NCBI RefSeq assembly: GCF_965200405.1
Contig: NZ_OZ241356.1
Span: 2,186,370 to 2,250,369, forward strand
From: Glacieibacterium sp.
GTDB taxonomy: Bacteria > Pseudomonadota > Alphaproteobacteria > Sphingomonadales > Sphingomonadaceae
Length of the DNA stretch: 64,000 bases
Direction of reading: 5' to 3'
This document shows, piece after piece, positions 2,491-42,086 of the stretch; the first letter of the stretch is position 1, and each line of letters begins with the position of its first letter. The translations under genes were made by a program, and so were the position numbers. A model generated the notes under the pieces. It ran no database searches, was not told the DNA's origin, and saw nothing but the letters and a program-made list of their open reading frames with translations.

Positions 2491-3053
2491 GCGGCGTTCC
2501 TACAAACCAGCTGGCTCTGACCAGCTGGGAAATACACTTGGTTTTCAGCGGGCCCGGGGAGCGGACCAACCTTGCGGAAGCCTATGCAATGATGATGCCA
2601 ACTATTTGGCGATTATATTTAACAATGGGTTAGCGTGTGAAAACGAGATCAGTTCGGTAACGGAATGTAAAGTTATATTACAAACTTCTTAACACTTTAT
2701 GGTTAATCGTCGTCGGTGCCGGTTTTCGGCAGCGTGGCAATCGGCCGGTATCAGGCTGGAGTTGCCCGGAAAATCGACCTCAAGGTGCAGCGCCATCGTC
2801 CGGAGCGCCCGCTGCCCGGGCGGCGGCGCCCAGCAGCAACCGTTCAGCATGACTAAGAGAGCAGTCGCGAGACAGAGACTATGCCGGTCTTCGCCGCCAT
2901 CGAACGAGCAATGTCACAATTCTGCCGAATGGCTGAAATGTACAGGTAACACGCCTTAACTAGATCGGGATCAGGCTTGCACCACGATATCTTGCCACTG
3001 GTGCAGGGTTGTCTGAACACTGGCGTTGCCGGTCTACTCAAGGGGCTATTCGA

Positions 3054-3689
3054 ATGCGATTCCTGAAAACCTGTGTCTCTGCGCTCGCGTTGTTGACTGC
3101 CGTTACCGGCGCCCAGGCCGCCAACCTTGTGGAAAACTTCAACGAGCCCTTCGTCGGCTGGGAAAGCCGCTGGTTCGGTGCCGAGACCAGTGCCGTGAAC
3201 TATTATGTCTCCGAGCAGGGACCAAGCAATGCCGACTATCGTGGCGCGCCGGATCATAGCGGCCTGGTCCTGAGCGATGGCGACAGCTATCGCGACGGTG
3301 GCAATTACGGCCAGATCCTGATCAGCTTCAGCAGCAGCTTTGGCGCATCGCTCAAGTCGTTCAGCATGGATGTCGCTTCGGCGCTGCCGAACTCGACGCT
3401 GTTCTTCTACGACATGCAGGGCGCGACGATCGCGTCGTTCGTCCTCCCCGGCTCGCCGCTGTCGCCATATTACACGCCGACCAGCTACACGAACGTGTCG
3501 GTTACCTCGACAAATGGCATCGGCGGCTTCAGCTTCACCGACTTCGCGCAGGGCAACACGATCATCGACAACCTTGCCGCGGCGACGGTCCCGGAGCCGG
3601 CGAGCTGGGCGATGATGGTGCTCGGCTTCGGCGCGATCGGCAGCGCGCTGCGTCGCCGCAAGACCGCCTCGACCGTCAACTTCGCTTGA
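3054..3689 (+). CDS. PEP-CTERM (PEPxxWA type) sorting-domain surface protein, second paralogue
   Basis: ORF 3009..3689 trimmed to ATG 3054 (MRFLKTCVSALALLTAVTGAQA, signal peptide) with AAGGGG upstream. The C-terminus is ...VPEPASWAMMVLGFGAIGSALRRRK. Confidence 0.85.
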   Translation: MRFLKTCVSALALLTAVTGAQAANLVENFNEPFVGWESRWFGAETSAVNYYVSEQGPSNADYRGAPDHSGLVLSDGDSYRDGGNYGQILISFSSSFGASLKSFSMDVASALPNSTLFFYDMQGATIASFVLPGSPLSPYYTPTSYTNVSVTSTNGIGGFSFTDFAQGNTIIDNLAAATVPEPASWAMMVLGFGAIGSALRRRKTASTVNFA

Positions 3690-3747
3690 GCAAGCGAAGC
3701 ATCTGAGACGGCGCGTACCGCCCGGCCGAGTTTCGCCGGGCGGTACG

Positions 3748-5580
3748 TCATCGCCGCCCGAACAGCTTCTCCAGGTCGCTCTTCGCCAGTTTCACCCAGG
3801 TCGGTCGGCCGTGGTTGCATTGGCCGGAGTGGGGAGTGACCTCCATCTCGCGGAGCAGGGCGTTCATCTCGGCGACGCTGAGCAACCGGCCGGCACGGAC
3901 GCTGCCGTGGCAGGCCATGGTAGCGGCGACGGCGTCGAGTTTCTCCTTCAGCGTCAGTGCGCTGCCCCAGCTCGCGAGGTCGTCGGCAAGGTCGCGGATC
4001 AGTCCCGCGGCGTCGGTCTGGCCGAGCAGCGCCGGGGTGGCGCGGACCAGGATCGCGGTGCGGCCGAAGCGTTCGACCTCCAGCCCCAGTTCGGCCAGTT
4101 CGGCGGCGCGGTCGGCGATGCGGCCGGCGGCGAGTTCGTCGAGTTCGACGACTTCGGGGAGCAGCAGCGACTGGCTGTGGACGCCCCCATTAGCCAGCGC
4201 CTTGTTGAGCCGCTCCAGCGTCAGCCGCTCGTGCGCGGCGTGCTGGTCCACCAGAATCAGGCCGTCGCGCGCCTCGGCGACGATGTAGGTGCCGGCGACC
4301 TGGCCCCGCGCCACGCCCATCGGGAAGTCGTTGAGCGGCTGGGCGGGTTCGGTGCGGGCGAATGGCATCGCGGCATCGGCGAACATCGAGCCCGTTGAAG
4401 ACCCACCCCTAGCCCCTCCCGTTCCGGGCGGGGAACCCGCTTGTGGCCAGTACCCGCCCAAATTTCTGTCCAGTGGGGAATAGCCCGCCCACGCGTGTCC
4501 CCCGCCCGAAACGGGAGGGGCCAGGGGTGGGTCTTCTGCGCGGAATGCATTCAGCACCCCAGCCGCCACCGTCGTCGAAGCCCGGTGCCCCGCCGAATCG
4601 AGCGCCCGCCGCAGCCCGGAGACGATCATCCCCCGCACCAGCGCGGCGTCGCGAAAGCGCACCTCGGTCTTCGCCGGATGGACGTTGACGTCGACGAAAT
4701 CGGCGGGGACGTCGAGGAACAGCGCCACCACCGGATGCCGGTCGCGCGCCAGCAGGTCCATGTAGGCGCCGCGCACCGCCCCGACGAGCAGCCGGTCGCG
4801 CACCGGACGGCCGTTGACGAACAGGAACTGATGGTCGGCGACGCCGCGATTATAGGTCGGCAGCCCGGCGAGCCCACCGAGCCTCAGCTCCTCGCGGACG
4901 AAATCCAGCGCCACCGCATTGTCGGCGAAATCGACGCCGAGCAGCGCCGCCAGCCGGGGTGGCAGGCCGGCATCGCCCGCTGCGCCAGCCTCGGCACTGA
5001 GCATCCGGCGGCCGTCGTGGCGGACCTCGAACACGACCTCGGGCCGAGCCATTGCCAGCCGGCGCACGACATCGATGCAGGCGCCGAGCTCCGAGCGTTC
5101 CGACTTCAGGAACTTGCGCCGGGCGGGAACGCGTTCGAACAGCCCGTCGACCGAGACTCGCGTGCCGGGCGGCAGGGCGGCGGGGGCATCGACGACGATC
5201 CGGCCATTGTCGACGACCAGCGTCCAGCCCTCGGACCCCGGCGGCCGGCTGCTCAGCCGAAGCCGGGCGACGCTGGCGATCGAGGGCAGGGCCTCGCCGC
5301 GAAAGCCCAGGGTGGCGATGGCTTCCAGGTCGTCGCCCGCCAGCTTGGAGGTCGCGTGGCGCTCGATCGCCAGCCGCATTTCCGACGCGACCATGCCGTG
5401 CCCGTCGTCGGTCACCGACAGATGGTCGATTCCCCCCGCCGACAGTTCGACGATTATGCGCCGCGCCCCGGCATCGAGGGCGTTCTCGACCAGCTCCTTG
5501 AGCGCGGAGGCAGGGCGTTCGACAACCTCGCCGGCCGCAATCTGGTTGACGAGATGGTCCGGCAGGCGGCGGATCGGCAT
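3748..5580 (-). CDS. mutL: DNA mismatch repair protein MutL
   Basis: 610 aa with the N-terminal GHKL ATPase motif ([38 protein letters not shown]). The C-terminal endonuclease/dimerisation region ends ...HGRPTWVKL. Confidence 0.95.
4397..4536. repeat. Palindromic MITE/REP-like element embedded in frame in the mutL linker
   Basis: The 37-nt arm GAAGACCCACCCCTAGCCCCTCCCGTTCCGGGCGGGG (4397-4433) is the reverse complement of 4500-4536 (CCCCGCCCGAAACGGGAGGGGCCAGGGGTGGGTCTTC) with 2 mismatches. Each arm also holds its own short hairpin. Both strands translate to EDPPLAPPV[PS]GG (ORF 4289..4483 + and mutL). Confidence 0.75.
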
Positions 5581-5593
5581 GCCGACGCTTTAG

Positions 5594-6751
<1,158 letters not shown>

Positions 6752-8362: not shown

Positions 8363-10288
8363 GTGGCGACGATCACCGAGGCCGGGCACGAGCAGATGTT
8401 CTCCAGGCGCGCCTTCGTGCTGGGCGGCGGCATGGCGGCGGTCGGCATGACATTGGCGGCGCGGATGGCGTGGCTGTCGATCTTCGAGGGCGACAAGTAC
8501 AAGCTGGCGTCGGAGGACAACCGCGTCTCGCTGCGCCTGATCCCGCCGCGCCGGGGCTGGATCGTCGATCGCAACGGGCTGCCGCTCGCCTCCAACGCGC
8601 CCGACTACCGGCTGGAGCTGATCCCGGAGCAGGTCGGCGACCTGGAGGCGACGTTGCGCGCCATCATGGGCGTGCTGCCGCTGACGCTCGACGACCTCAA
8701 CCGCATCCGGGGCGATATCGCGCGCCAGCCGGAATACATGCCGGTCGAGATCGCGCACGGGCTTGCGTGGCCGCAGTTCGCCGCCTTGAACGTCCGCCTG
8801 CCCGACCTGCCCGGGGTCCTGCCGGTGCATGGCTTCAGCCGGGTCTATCCGGGCGGCGAGGCCTTTGCGCACCTGCTCGGCTATGTCGCGGTGCCGACGC
8901 CGGAGCAGTACAAGCGCACGCACGATCCGCTGCTGATCTTCCCGGGGTTCAAGCTCGGCAAGGACGGCATCGAGCGGACGCAGGATGCGCCGTTGCGCGG
9001 TACGGCGGGGGCGCGGCGGGTCGAGGTAAACGCCCGCGGCCGGGTGATCCGCGACCTCGACACGCGCAGCGACATCCCCGGCAAGAGCGTCCGCCTGACC
9101 ATCGACCGCGGCTTGCAGGCCTATGCGGCGAAGCGGCTGGGCGACAACAGCGCCAGCGTCATCGTCATGGACTGCCGCACCGGCGACGTGCTGTGCATGG
9201 TGTCGATGCCGGCCTATGATCCCAACGTCTTCTCGACGCGGGTGACGACCAAGCTGTGGGCGGAACTGCAGGCGTCGAACCATCACCCGCTGATCAACAA
9301 GAGCGCGCAGGGACTGTACCCGCCGGGCTCGACCTTCAAGATGATGACCTCGCTGGCAGCGCTGAAGGCGGGGGTCAACGCCGACCAGGGGGTGATCTGC
9401 AACGGCACCTATCGGCTGGGGAACGGCATCTGGCACTGCTACAGCCGCCGCGGTCACGGGCGTGTCGACATGCACACCGCGCTGCCGCAGAGCTGCGACG
9501 TGTATTTCTACACGGTCGGGCGGGCGGCGGGCATCCAGGGCATCGCCGACATGGCGCGCAAGTTCGGGTTGGGCCAGAAATACGAGCTGCCGGTGCCGGG
9601 CCAGTCGGCGGGTATCGTCCCCGATCCGGCGTGGAAGACCCGGCGCTACAAGAAGGACTGGACGATCGGCGAGACGCTGAACACCACGATCGGGCAGGGC
9701 TATCTGGTGGTCAATCCGCTGCAACTCGCGGTGATGGGCGCCCGGCTGGCGAGCGGGCTGGAAGTCCAGCCGCGACTGCTCGCCGATAGCCCGCGCGTCG
9801 AGTTCCCGTCGCTGGGCATCGACCCGGAGCATCTGGCGATCGTTCGGTCGGGGATGAGCGGCGTCGTCAACGGTCCGCGCGGCACGGCGCGGGCGGCGCG
9901 GCTGCAGGTCGACGGCGTCACCATGTCTGGCAAGACCGGCTCGGCGCAGGTCCGGCGGATCAGCATGGCGGAGCGCAAGCGCGGCGTGGTGCGGCAGGAG
10001 GCGGTGCCGTGGCAGTACCGCGACCACGCGCTGTTCGTCGCCTTCGCACCGACCGATGCGCCGCAATATTCGGTCAGCGTCATCGTCGAGCATGGCGCGC
10101 ACGGCAACACCACCGCCGCGCCGATCGCGCGCGACGTGCTGACCTATCTGTTCGAGCCGGAGCGCGCGATGGCGACGCTGGCGCCGCTGGAGCGCGCCCT
10201 GGAGCAGAAGCGTGCCGCCGAGGCCGCCGCCCTGGCCAATGCGAGCCCGGAGCCCGCGGAAGAGGACGCTGCGGGACCGCCGGAGTGA
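8363..10288 (+). CDS. mrdA: Penicillin-binding protein 2 (elongasome transpeptidase)
   Basis: 641 aa with a TM anchor, a PBP dimerisation domain and the transpeptidase motifs STFK (PPGSTFKMMT) and KTG (SGKTGSAQV). Confidence 0.92.
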   Translation: MATITEAGHEQMFSRRAFVLGGGMAAVGMTLAARMAWLSIFEGDKYKLASEDNRVSLRLIPPRRGWIVDRNGLPLASNAPDYRLELIPEQVGDLEATLRAIMGVLPLTLDDLNRIRGDIARQPEYMPVEIAHGLAWPQFAALNVRLPDLPGVLPVHGFSRVYPGGEAFAHLLGYVAVPTPEQYKRTHDPLLIFPGFKLGKDGIERTQDAPLRGTAGARRVEVNARGRVIRDLDTRSDIPGKSVRLTIDRGLQAYAAKRLGDNSASVIVMDCRTGDVLCMVSMPAYDPNVFSTRVTTKLWAELQASNHHPLINKSAQGLYPPGSTFKMMTSLAALKAGVNADQGVICNGTYRLGNGIWHCYSRRGHGRVDMHTALPQSCDVYFYTVGRAAGIQGIADMARKFGLGQKYELPVPGQSAGIVPDPAWKTRRYKKDWTIGETLNTTIGQGYLVVNPLQLAVMGARLASGLEVQPRLLADSPRVEFPSLGIDPEHLAIVRSGMSGVVNGPRGTARAARLQVDGVTMSGKTGSAQVRRISMAERKRGVVRQEAVPWQYRDHALFVAFAPTDAPQYSVSVIVEHGAHGNTTAAPIARDVLTYLFEPERAMATLAPLERALEQKRAAEAAALANASPEPAEEDAAGPPE

Positions 10289-10310
10289 CGGACGTGCAGG
10301 CAATGCCGCC

Positions 10311-11411
10311 ATGCTGAACGGCGCCTGGACGCTGCGGCTGCGGGCGATCCCCTGGGCGATCGTGCTGGTCATCATCGCGCTGACCGGCTTTGGACTGGTG
10401 ATCCTGTATTCCGCGGCGGGCGGCAGCCTGCAGCCCTGGGCGCTGAAGCAGGGCATCCGCTTTGTCGTGCTGCTGCTTGCCATGCTGGTGCTGGCGCAGA
10501 TCGATACCGGGGTGTGGCTGAAATGGGCCTATGCCCTGTACGGCGCGGTGTTGCTCGCCCTCGTCGGGGTCGAGCTGCTGGGGCAGATCGGCGGCGGCAG
10601 CCAGCGCTGGCTCGACCTGGGCATCATCCAGCTGCAGCCGTCGGAGTTCATGAAGCTGGCCATCATCCTGGCCCTGGCGCGCTTTTATCAAAATCTGCCG
10701 CGGCCGTTCCTGACCACCATCCAGGGGCTGTGGCCGCCGCTGCTGTTGATCGCGATGCCGGCGGCGCTGGTCATGCTGCAACCCGACCTCGGCACGGCGC
10801 TGGCGATCTCGTTCGGCGGGGTCGTGATGATGTTCCTGGCGGGGGTGCGGCTGTGGCTGTTCCTGGGGGCCGGGGCGGCGGTCGGTGCGGCGCTGCCGGT
10901 GGCGTGGACGATGCTCCACGACTACCAGCGCAAGCGCGTGCTGATCTTCATGGATCCGGCCAGCGATCCGCTCGGTGCCGGCTATCATATCACCCAGTCG
11001 AAGATCGCCATCGGCAGTGGTGGATTGTCGGGTAAAGGTTTCCTGCAAGGAACGCAGTCTCACCTCGACTATCTGCCAGAACTTCACACCGACTTTATCT
11101 TTGCGACTATGGCTGAAGAGTGGGGTTTACTTGGTGGCTTGTTTGTCATCATCGGCTTCGGCACCCTGCTGGCCTGGGGCATCGGCGTTGCACTCAGGGC
11201 GCGCACCCGGTTCGAGCGACTAGCCGCGCTGGGGCTGACCTTCACGCTGTTTTTCTATTTGGCGATCAACATGATGATGGTGATGGGATTGGCGCCCGTC
11301 GTCGGCATTCCGCTGCCGTTGATCAGCTATGGCGGCTCGGCGATGATGACCGTGCTGATCCTGCTCGGTTTGCTGATGGGGATCGCCCGCCAGACCCGAC
11401 GCGCCGCCTGA
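10311..11411 (+). CDS. rodA: Peptidoglycan glycosyltransferase RodA (SEDS family)
   Basis: ORF 10212..11411 trimmed to ATG 10311 (MLNGAWTLRL...). It contains SEDS blocks (...QPSEFMKLAIILALARFY..., ...DFIFATMAEEWGLLGG..., ...PLPLISYGGSAMM...). Confidence 0.9.
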   Translation: MLNGAWTLRLRAIPWAIVLVIIALTGFGLVILYSAAGGSLQPWALKQGIRFVVLLLAMLVLAQIDTGVWLKWAYALYGAVLLALVGVELLGQIGGGSQRWLDLGIIQLQPSEFMKLAIILALARFYQNLPRPFLTTIQGLWPPLLLIAMPAALVMLQPDLGTALAISFGGVVMMFLAGVRLWLFLGAGAAVGAALPVAWTMLHDYQRKRVLIFMDPASDPLGAGYHITQSKIAIGSGGLSGKGFLQGTQSHLDYLPELHTDFIFATMAEEWGLLGGLFVIIGFGTLLAWGIGVALRARTRFERLAALGLTFTLFFYLAINMMMVMGLAPVVGIPLPLISYGGSAMMTVLILLGLLMGIARQTRRAA

Positions 11412-11840
11412 CCAGGCGAGCCGCGCGCGTCACCACTGCAAGGCGCTGATTCTAACGGTGCATCGCGCGAATCACGTCGTTCGTCGCGACAAATCAGATA
11501 ATCGGCGCGGTATCCGGGCCAATCCTTGCCTCGTTATTACCAGAACAGCGCGGCAGGACAGTCACGCTACAAGATAATCGCATCATGACAGTCACAGCAC
11601 TACGGCTTTACTGACCCGTAACGATCTTTCTTGCGTCGATGGTTAGGTCGAAACAACGCGCGATCGATTAGCCGTTATTTAATAACTTGTACAAACAATA
11701 GTCATACCGGTCATGAAACAACCGCTTGCAACTGTTCTATGCTTTTTGTCTATTTCAATCGTTGAGGCTCTGAAACGCAGTAATTTAACTTCAAAGTAAG
11801 TCGCCTTAACCGAGTGTTTATTCAAGAGGGGAGAGTTCTA

Positions 11841-41951: not shown

Positions 41952-41966
41952 GCGCCGGTCGCCGGA

Positions 41967-42007
41967 CGATAACGGGAAATTTGCACTTCGCGAATTTCAC
42001 GTTATCG
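41967..42007 (+). promoter_or_regulatory. AT-rich 15-bp-stem hairpin in the rpoA-rplQ spacer
   Basis: CGATAACGGGAAATT (41967-41981) pairs with AATTTCACGTTATCG (41993-42007) with one mismatch and an 11-nt loop. Confidence 0.5.
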
Positions 42008-42086
42008 ACCGGGACGACCAAGCGCGGCCGGCGGGTGCAACCCGACCGACGACGCGGCTTTGCCGCGGCGCTAATGACGGAAACTG

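Follow-up and report, generated by a model that had tools for sequence, protein, structure and literature searches.

Among the short structure-forming repeats of bacterial genomes, the closest described counterpart of the element considered here is a G/C-rich motif that was named BoxC, then PIT element and then TM (triplex motif), with TMECO as its E. coli form (Hoyne & Maher 2000, 2002; Holder et al. 2015, PMC4666352). It consists of three 9-nt segments, namely a C stem, a G stem and a mirror G stem, with a loop of 3-6 nt after the first and one of 3 nt after the second; the E. coli consensus CCCTCNCCC-N3-6-GGGNGAGGG-N3-GGGNGAGGG is treated as one case within the broader TM class (PMC4666352). 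In E. coli the motif is reported as always intergenic (23 copies, five inverted pairs among them), and as single-stranded DNA it forms an intramolecular triplex in vitro, as seen by circular dichroism and nuclear magnetic resonance (NMR). TM motifs show no tie to transposons, phages or plasmids and their function is not known; in E. coli they are tied to local instability, palindromic pairs showing partial deletions that retain a hairpin (PMC4666352). Here we describe a 140-nt palindromic element that lies in frame within mutL, in a 64,000-nt stretch of the genome of a Glacieibacterium sp. (the window, i.e. the whole of the DNA analysed), and which, judged by its sequence, is an inverted pair of BoxC/PIT/TM triplex-motif units of a subfamily other than TMECO. 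The reading that we favour, with a probability of roughly two thirds, is that an old inverted pair of such units was fixed in frame in the disordered linker of MutL, where it has been tolerated, has drifted and has sometimes been lost.

Two further bodies of literature bear on this locus. Palindromes that are translated in frame are known from the Rickettsia palindromic elements (RPEs), which measure ~100-150 bp and sit in housekeeping genes of an alphaproteobacterial lineage, at places where the protein can work in spite of them (Ogata et al. 2000, 2002; PMC10969869), and from intragenic REPs, i.e. short GC-rich palindromic units, often arranged as head-to-head dimers that can form a larger hairpin (Di Nocera et al. 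2013, PMC3733652). GTAG and CGTC REPs occur in frame in genes and are over-represented in those for replication and repair and for tRNA synthetases (notably uvrA/B/D, polA, recBCD and dnaE2), and RPE-4 and RPE-6 are CGTC REPs according to the same authors; mutL, mutS and mismatch repair are not among the REP hosts in the searched supplements of that study, and mutL is not named in the paper itself (PMC3733652). The linker of E. coli MutL, on the other side, is ~100 aa long, proline-rich and disordered; shortening it by 40% gives no mutator phenotype, and its length matters for roadblock bypass (PMC6902014). The present locus joins these three separate literatures (BoxC/PIT/triplex motifs, in-frame palindromes such as RPEs and intragenic REPs, and the length-sensitive MutL linker), and in the literature searched no report of such repeats in mutL was found, while the motif sequence itself turned up only in work on eukaryotic Sp1 sites. 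The features concerned are the following (positions in the window; the triad counts are explained below):

3748..5580, minus strand: mutL, 610 aa, MutL of the endonuclease type, from its open reading frame (ORF) and the domains of its homologues
4397..4536, no strand assigned: whole palindromic element (inverted triplex-motif pair plus spacer), MutL residues 349-395
4401..4433, minus strand: triplex-motif unit A, triads 7/9, Watson-Crick pairs 8/9, generalised pattern matched
4434..4499, no strand assigned: spacer of 66 nt, of which the outer 10 nt on each side (4434-4443, 4490-4499) prolong the arm pairing
4500..4532, plus strand: triplex-motif unit B, triad test 7/9, generalised pattern matched
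4289..4483, plus strand: antisense ORF of 64 aa, which holds a mirrored 12-aa peptide

The mutL product has a disordered linker between an N-terminal GHKL ATPase domain and a C-terminal endonuclease domain, the latter with a 17-aa motif and the CNHGRPT motif (domains found on MutL homologues: PF13589, PF01119 and PF08676), and its catalytic motifs are invariant across the orthologue alignment. A preliminary description of this DNA had placed the element entirely inside mutL, in frame, in the poorly conserved linker, and this proved right: it occupies nt 1045-1184 of the gene, starts on a codon boundary (frame offset 0) and contributes 47 aa. In the AlphaFold2 model, MutL residues 345-420 are coil with a pLDDT of 26-35 (confidence being low from residue 332), and residues 349-395 are thus predicted to lie within the disordered interdomain linker. 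The span from NVHPxK to DQHAAHER amounts to ~130-140 aa with the insert, versus 106-116 aa in orthologues of the clade that are without it. The C-tracts of the element encode prolines and its G-tracts glycines, and the repeat is probably tolerated because these residues suit a proline-rich disordered linker. The ORF on the opposite strand, to which the same description had drawn attention, does exist with its mirrored peptide, but it is a mechanical by-product of the palindrome, with no evidence of being a gene.

The arms of the palindrome (4397-4433 and 4500-4536) are 37 nt each and 95% complementary, with the two mismatches reported before; gapless extension lengthens them to 47 nt (4397-4443 and 4490-4536) at 89% complementarity, around a centre of 46 nt. 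Also as described before, the unextended arms enclose a centre of 66 nt and each arm contains a sub-hairpin of its own, namely a 9-bp hairpin with one mismatch, CCCCTCCCG-ttc-CGGGCGGGG at 4413-4433 and its mirror at 4500-4520. This is the only inverted repeat with arms of at least 24 nt in the 64 kb, dinucleotide shuffles of the window gave no match to the arm, and as RNA the palindrome folds at -123.7 kcal/mol (z = -10.6). The matches to Rfam within 3500-5800 were only sub-threshold miRNA precursors, which are generic to long hairpins, and were put down to chance.

Read on its G-rich strand, each unit has the form CCCCTCCCG-loop-CGGGAGGGG-CTA-GGGGTGGGT, i.e. a pyrimidine stem followed by the complementary purine stem and, after a loop of 3 nt, by a mirror copy of the latter, which is the three-segment architecture of the TM motif, in which one stem mismatch is allowed. 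Unit A, the 3' unit on the mutL sense strand, runs along the plus strand as ACCCACCCC (4401-4409), TAG (4410-4412), CCCCTCCCG (4413-4421), TTC (4422-4424) and CGGGCGGGG (4425-4433), and reads CCCCGCCCG-gaa-CGGGAGGGG-cta-GGGGTGGGT on the minus strand. Unit B, which is the 5' unit on the mutL sense strand and has its C-rich orientation there, consists of CCCCGCCCG (4500-4508), AAA (4509-4511), CGGGAGGGG (4512-4520), CCA (4521-4523) and GGGGTGGGT (4524-4532). The C-rich stem is present in both (CCCCGCCCG-(gaa/aaa)-CGGGAGGGG, 8/9 Watson-Crick pairs, with orthologues reaching 9/9), as is the mirror segment (cta/cca followed by GGGGTGGGT), with 8/9 Hoogsteen-compatible positions. When purine-motif triads (G.G-C, A.A-T and T.A-T) were counted along the three segments, the window units A and B scored 7/9 each, orthologous units up to 8/9, and the other two subfamilies found in mutL (types B and C, listed below) 9/9 and 10/10, versus 2/8 for a CGTC-REP control and a mean of 2.7 (maximum 6) for shuffles. 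In three subfamilies the non-G base of the third segment moves with the A of the purine stem, and both window units fit the generalised pattern CCCCNCCC-N3-8-GGGNGGGG-N3-GGGGNGGG.

The window units, being of another sequence subfamily (CCCCTCCCG / CGGGAGGGG / GGGGTGGGT versus CCCTCNCCC / GGGNGAGGG / GGGNGAGGG), do not match the exact TMECO consensus, whereas the TMECO regular expression is matched exactly by the type C inserts that occupy this mutL site in other Sphingomonadales (L139, L148, L182 and L200; L numbers are our labels for the loci compared). The published motif is widespread in bacteria, and the element further shares with it the inverted pairing and the partial deletion of palindromic pairs (PMC4666352); it differs in that the E. 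coli motif is reported as intergenic, while the window motif is translated in frame in a conserved gene. A G-quadruplex or i-motif formed by the four C-tracts had been considered as well, and this idea was superseded by the mirror-repeat geometry, which fits the published triplex motif; for TMECO, NMR favours the triplex over the G-quadruplex (PMC4666352), and for the window subfamily a G-quadruplex stays conceivable.

In the preliminary description the element was called MITE- or RPE-like. It is indeed a miniature palindromic repeat, and the analogy to RPEs is apt, given that REPs are documented in frame in replication and repair genes (PMC3733652), but the family is another one. The likeness to RPEs is one of situation, and no motif in common with them was identified (the sequences were not aligned): these are AT-rich elements of reduced genomes in a different lineage, and no triplex-type mirror segment is reported in the RPE literature searched. 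From intragenic REPs the element is set apart by its stem sequence, its extra mirror-repeat third segment and the lack of a GTAG or CGTC tag, although true CGTC-1-type dimers do occur in the same MutL linker in other loci (L155, L174 and L137). More specifically, no GT[AG]G or CGTC tag stands beside the palindrome (the stem-adjacent tetranucleotides are CTAG, CTGG or TTAG), and the window stems are without the AT-start of CGTC REPs.

With REPINs (Bertels & Rainey 2011; Nunvar et al. 2010, PMC2817692) the element shares its build from two short palindromic units, which are inverted, stand on either side of a spacer and together give one larger, long hairpin; its arms can moreover be read as the terminal inverted repeats of a MITE. 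Such an architecture, together with the precedent of in-frame palindromes in RPEs and REPs, could point to a MITE or REPIN that was mobilised by a transposase and recently inserted. We consider this highly improbable. Besides the missing tag, no RAYT was detected with an approximate E. coli query (a weak probe) in a tblastn search of the window and all mutL loci, which cover a small fraction of each genome, nor was an insertion sequence found in these loci, and there is no sign of a population of copies within the genome. No target-site duplication or insertion junction is recognisable, insert-bearing and insert-free sister lineages being too diverged at the junctions; in L148 and L182, compared with L168 and L188, the insert in fact seems to replace linker sequence. 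TM motifs as such have no known link to mobile elements (see above), viral contigs gave no exact matches, and the insertion is common to several genera.

The window MutL is closest to that of Sphingosinicellaceae, with Glacieibacterium and Polymorphobacter among the named matches. The insert peptide, PPL[A/T]PPVPGGG.AWG.YS...PGTGGVRGG, was found in 11 of 20 close orthologues (Glacieibacterium frigidum included), at identities down to 77%, while in Polymorphobacter and a few others it is absent or has one unit left, and more distant MutL orthologues are without it. The orthologue alignment proposed earlier thus bears out an insertion shared by close relatives, and these relatives carry a palindromic insert, not a plain linker of the same length. 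Among the ten orthologues compared at the DNA level, the palindrome is kept in L119 (-97.6 kcal/mol), L123 (-112 kcal/mol), L118 and L120, shows decay in L121 and L124, has lost a part in L125, survives as a remnant only in L127 and is gone in L126; the last two are nested within the insert-bearing clade, which means that the insert was lost there. The centre of the spacer also varies in length among orthologues, by an in-frame indel of 30 nt. The insertion is therefore old and common to several Sphingosinicellaceae genera, contrary to the recent insertion that the preliminary description implied. As a separate observation on these loci, genes for a tyrosine integrase and for type IV secretion (VirB8, CagX, TrbI) adjoin the rodA-mreBCD-mutL cluster in L120 (1-4032), which suggests that an integrative conjugative element was inserted nearby.

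The closest relative, L122, is 97.2% identical over 15.6 kb. Its element differs at 17 of 140 positions (12.1%), and as this equals the rate at 4-fold sites of mutL (10.6-12.8%), neither constraint nor hypermutation is apparent relative to L122; the hypermutability that could be read from a divergence of 12%, about 4-fold above the overall 2.8%, was for this reason dropped. In the same relative, mutL (10001-11834) is called as 567 aa, with a frameshift near the C-terminus, outside the element, on a contig of 2x coverage; this may reflect misassembly or a true mutL-defective allele.

These comparisons bear on the idea that the repeat pair is a mutability switch, i.e. that it destabilises mutL locally through replication stalling, slippage or breaks at the triplex or cruciform and so generates mutators and revertants at a raised frequency, its recurrence being explained by benefit or hitch-hiking. 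The instability of TM motifs in E. coli is in its favour, since the same types of change (the 30-nt spacer indel, the partial deletion in L125, and the remnant or loss in L127 and L126) are seen at the mutL element, and so are the strong concentration of TM and REP dimers in the mutL linker (see below) and the excess of intragenic REPs that Di Nocera et al. noted in genes for replication and repair (PMC3733652). However, all alleles seen are in frame with intact catalytic motifs, the sole frameshifted one (that of L122) being broken outside the element and of low coverage, and the recent divergence of the element is not raised. Inverted arms, moreover, provide no direct repeats for precise and reversible excision, and linker deletions need not inactivate the protein, as E. 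coli MutL shows on losing 40% of its linker (PMC6902014). A role as mutability switch is therefore attractive but unsupported, and we regard it as unlikely.

Over the longer term, nucleotide identity is 76% in the arms, 63% at 4-fold sites, 70% in the neighbouring linker and 81% in the domains, and amino acid identity is 0.61 in the arms, 0.62 in the neighbouring linker and 0.84 in the domains. It could be argued that the Pro/Gly-rich 47 aa have been exapted (for the binding of a partner, or as needed linker length) and are conserved as protein: the peptide is recognisable across genera (PPL(A/T)PPVPGGG...PGTGGVRGG), the arms lie above 4-fold sites (0.76 versus 0.63), and linker length matters for roadblock bypass by E. 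coli MutL (PMC6902014). That explanation seems quite unlikely, given that the amino acid identity of the arms is no higher than that of the linker next to them and well under that of the domains, that the nested lineages L126 and L127 have lost the segment, and that in other Sphingomonadales this position is taken by unrelated peptides which derive from different repeats or reading frames. The third-position identity of the arms (0.71) even exceeds their amino acid identity, which suggests conservation at the nucleotide level.

As to which structure is maintained, the long arm-to-arm helix shows no covariation (81.9% paired, with 379 of 500 shuffles equally good), while the hairpins of the units do co-vary (90.3% paired, 4 pairs changed on both sides; covariation 0.139 versus 0.074, reached by 4 of 500 shuffles), a signal that is no more than suggestive. 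One triad, in the 3' unit of L118 and L120, has changed at all three positions together, from C-G.G to T-A.A, which a plain hairpin would not require. In the window lineage, a symmetric double change of pair 33-108 (A-U to C-G) keeps the long helix and mismatches both unit stems, which is consistent with templated correction from arm to arm. What is kept, then, is structure at the level of the unit (hairpin stems and, once, a whole triad) and not the 140-nt hairpin. The strong hairpin of the preliminary description accordingly stands as a stable fold but not as the maintained feature.

This decides largely against an mRNA regulator, in which the 140-nt hairpin would lower MutL synthesis, through RNase III cleavage or ribosome stalling, and would be kept for that purpose. 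Such a role would fit the very stable fold (-119 to -124 kcal/mol, z = -10.6), the arm-to-arm pairing of the window copy, which is better than in any other orthologue, and the change of pair 33-108, which preserved the long helix but cost both local stems a pair. We nevertheless hold it to be very unlikely: besides being without covariation, the helix is eroding in L121 and L124 and has been deleted from L125-L127, with the gene retained throughout, the dimers of the other families have the opposite orientation and different sequences, and translating ribosomes in general unwind such structures in coding sequence. The unit geometry that is kept suggests a DNA-level process or a constraint on the repeat, not a regulatory mRNA hairpin.

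Outside the window, the unit is widespread. In the copy search that had been suggested, a pattern search, blastn, nhmmer and a scan for triplex motifs found no second copy of the element in the 64-kb window, but related units are common in other genomes. The 21-nt arm motif ACCCACCCCT[A/G]GCCCCTCCCG has more than 117 exact matches in species-representative genomes, where ~1-2 would be expected by chance on a rough estimate. Among the matches listed, hosts include Sphingomonadales, Bacteroidota, Cyanobacteria, Chloroflexi, Verrucomicrobiota, anammox Planctomycetota and bacteria of the candidate phyla radiation, at loci with a GC content of 35-71%. The motif is followed by the closing GAGGGG of the short hairpin in 107 of the 124 occurrences listed, and only 13 of these 124 have an inverted partner within 200 nt. 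A viral vehicle for the spread across phyla was considered and dropped, with 0 exact matches in viral contigs.

The same unit is found in frame in a class II aminoacyl-tRNA synthetase, between the catalytic and anticodon-binding domains (L004, ~aa 346, Falkowbacteria), in arginyl-tRNA synthetase (L020, ~aa 478, Moraniibacteriota), in the HsdM methylase (L035, ~aa 132, Scalindua), in the small chain of carbamoyl-phosphate synthase, as several inserts between its two domains (L068, ~aa 190, Bacteroidaceae), and, within the Sphingomonadales, in valyl-tRNA synthetase (L098, ~aa 557) and biotin carboxylase (L012, ~aa 385). These positions are mostly domain boundaries or loop interiors. As far as these reading frames indicate, triplex-motif units, which had until now been described as intergenic, form part of a number of conserved proteins in several phyla.

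The genomes of the relatives of the window organism carry dispersed palindromic repeat families, as is evident from the REP-type dimers near their mutL. CGTC-type dimers are located at L118 17535-17628, L119 20372-20464, L120 7773-7866, L125 355-448 and L126 15451-15554, and a C-rich hairpin dimer lies near mutL at L118 18172-18307; the L118 dimers stand between called ilv genes, and that of L120 inside the range called as mreC. Another C-rich hairpin dimer (CCCCTCCCCTCCAGGGGAGGGG ... GGGGGTGGGG) was noticed at L124 3673-3822, at the 3' end of mreC on the minus strand; it falls in frame in the C-terminal tail of MreC, which is rich in Pro and Gly (...DPTPGPPAASLAPPLEGRGKLPNPR*) and is another disordered segment that hosts a repeat.

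With 80 further mutL loci from metagenomes (63-73% identity), 90 loci and 678 kb were compared in total. Other Sphingomonadales have different inserts at the same position in the linker, all of them in frame:

Type B insert: same C-rich family, opposite dimer orientation; peptide SPSPSGEGLGWG...HPNPSPEGEGL
Type C insert: TMECO-type family; peptide SPSPQGGEGWGEG...SPYPSPPRGEG, singlets SPSPHLWGEGRGEG
CGTC-1 REP dimers (L155, L174, L137): peptide RHPGEGRDL...PAFAGVT

Of the 41 triplex motifs in the 90 loci, 39 lie within ~21 kb of linker, and long inverted repeats of the size of REP dimers occur at 0.667 per kb in the linker versus 0.027 per kb elsewhere; the density of generic 8-bp GC hairpins was dropped as a measure, its background being 2-3 per kb in DNA of 66% GC, and the criteria of long inverted repeats and triplex motifs were used. 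Dimers are oriented (-,+) in the window clade and (+,-) in Sphingomonadaceae, and because inversion of a palindrome cannot interconvert the two, at least two gains of triplex motifs must have taken place, in addition to separate gains of REPs. The insert types are scattered patchily over a tree from which the linker was left out, and sister lineages differ in having type B or type C at one and the same site (L150 versus L200 and L139). The MutL linker is therefore a repeatedly occupied home of structure-forming repeats across one order, the Sphingomonadales, and in this order most of the variation in MutL linker length stems from such repeats. In L132 (~1414-1656) and L134, a tandem repeat of ~21-nt units encoding (S/P)PQALA(D/E/G) replaces the palindromic insert; it is a different route of linker expansion, and its copy number may be variable.

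On these results, an inverted pair of triplex-motif units was fixed in frame in the variable, disordered MutL linker in the ancestor of a Sphingosinicellaceae clade. Its C- and G-tracts would be translated as extra Pro/Gly-rich flexible linker, which would allow the repeat to be tolerated, and its phenotypic effect, if any, would mainly be that of a longer linker. The geometry of the units may meanwhile be kept by a process or constraint at the DNA level, for example templated correction, conversion from other copies or selection on the motif.

Several observations weigh against this reading. Triplex formation has never been demonstrated in vivo, even for E. coli TMECO (PMC4666352), and the window units are slightly degenerate, with a G x A mismatch per stem and 7/9 triads. 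The covariation sample is small (8 related sequences), with 5-25% of null alignments reaching such shuffle ranks (by score or percent paired), and the three-position change is a single event in two sister sequences that could stem from conversion by another genomic copy. The excess of the arms (76%) over 4-fold sites (63%) in the long term leaves room for some constraint, and the element is a single copy in the 64-kb window, with none in the ~10-kb flanks of the relatives' mutL. Furthermore, the count behind the linker enrichment is inflated by shared ancestry (roughly 10 lineages rather than 39 independent events), and it compares the linker with flanks of mostly essential coding DNA; for these reasons the enrichment itself is taken to be real, but its cause may be either tolerance or targeting.

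A stronger version, in which the linker is a true hotspot for triplex motifs and REP dimers and more than a permissive site, with repeated independent gains and a turnover of subfamilies at one site across the Sphingomonadales (the elements may target mutL or be favoured there), and in which triplex geometry is actively maintained in coding sequence, as the three-way compensatory change suggests, is doubtful, though worth consideration. Transient impairment of mismatch repair could then aid the spread of repeats by recombination or conversion, or hitch-hiking with mutators could fix them. If the concentration in mutL does reflect targeting or selection, the locus would be a natural system for studying whether non-B DNA repeats modulate mismatch repair and mutation rate, and if it reflects tolerance alone, it would be a clean example of selfish or structural repeats that supply raw material for disordered linkers.

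Elsewhere in the window, the only other inverted repeat with arms of at least 20 nt is located at 41962-42012. It is AT-richer (CGATAACGGGAAATTTGCAC ...), has an 11-nt spacer and sits just past a TAG stop, with no T-run, and may serve to bind a protein or as a hairpin resembling a terminator. Directly downstream of mutL, at 3009-3689 on the plus strand, there is an ORF of 226 aa with a PEP-CTERM-like sorting signal at its end (VPEPASWAMMVLGFGAIGSALRRRK), and genes matching PF07589 are likewise found near mutL in several relatives (L119, L120 and L122).

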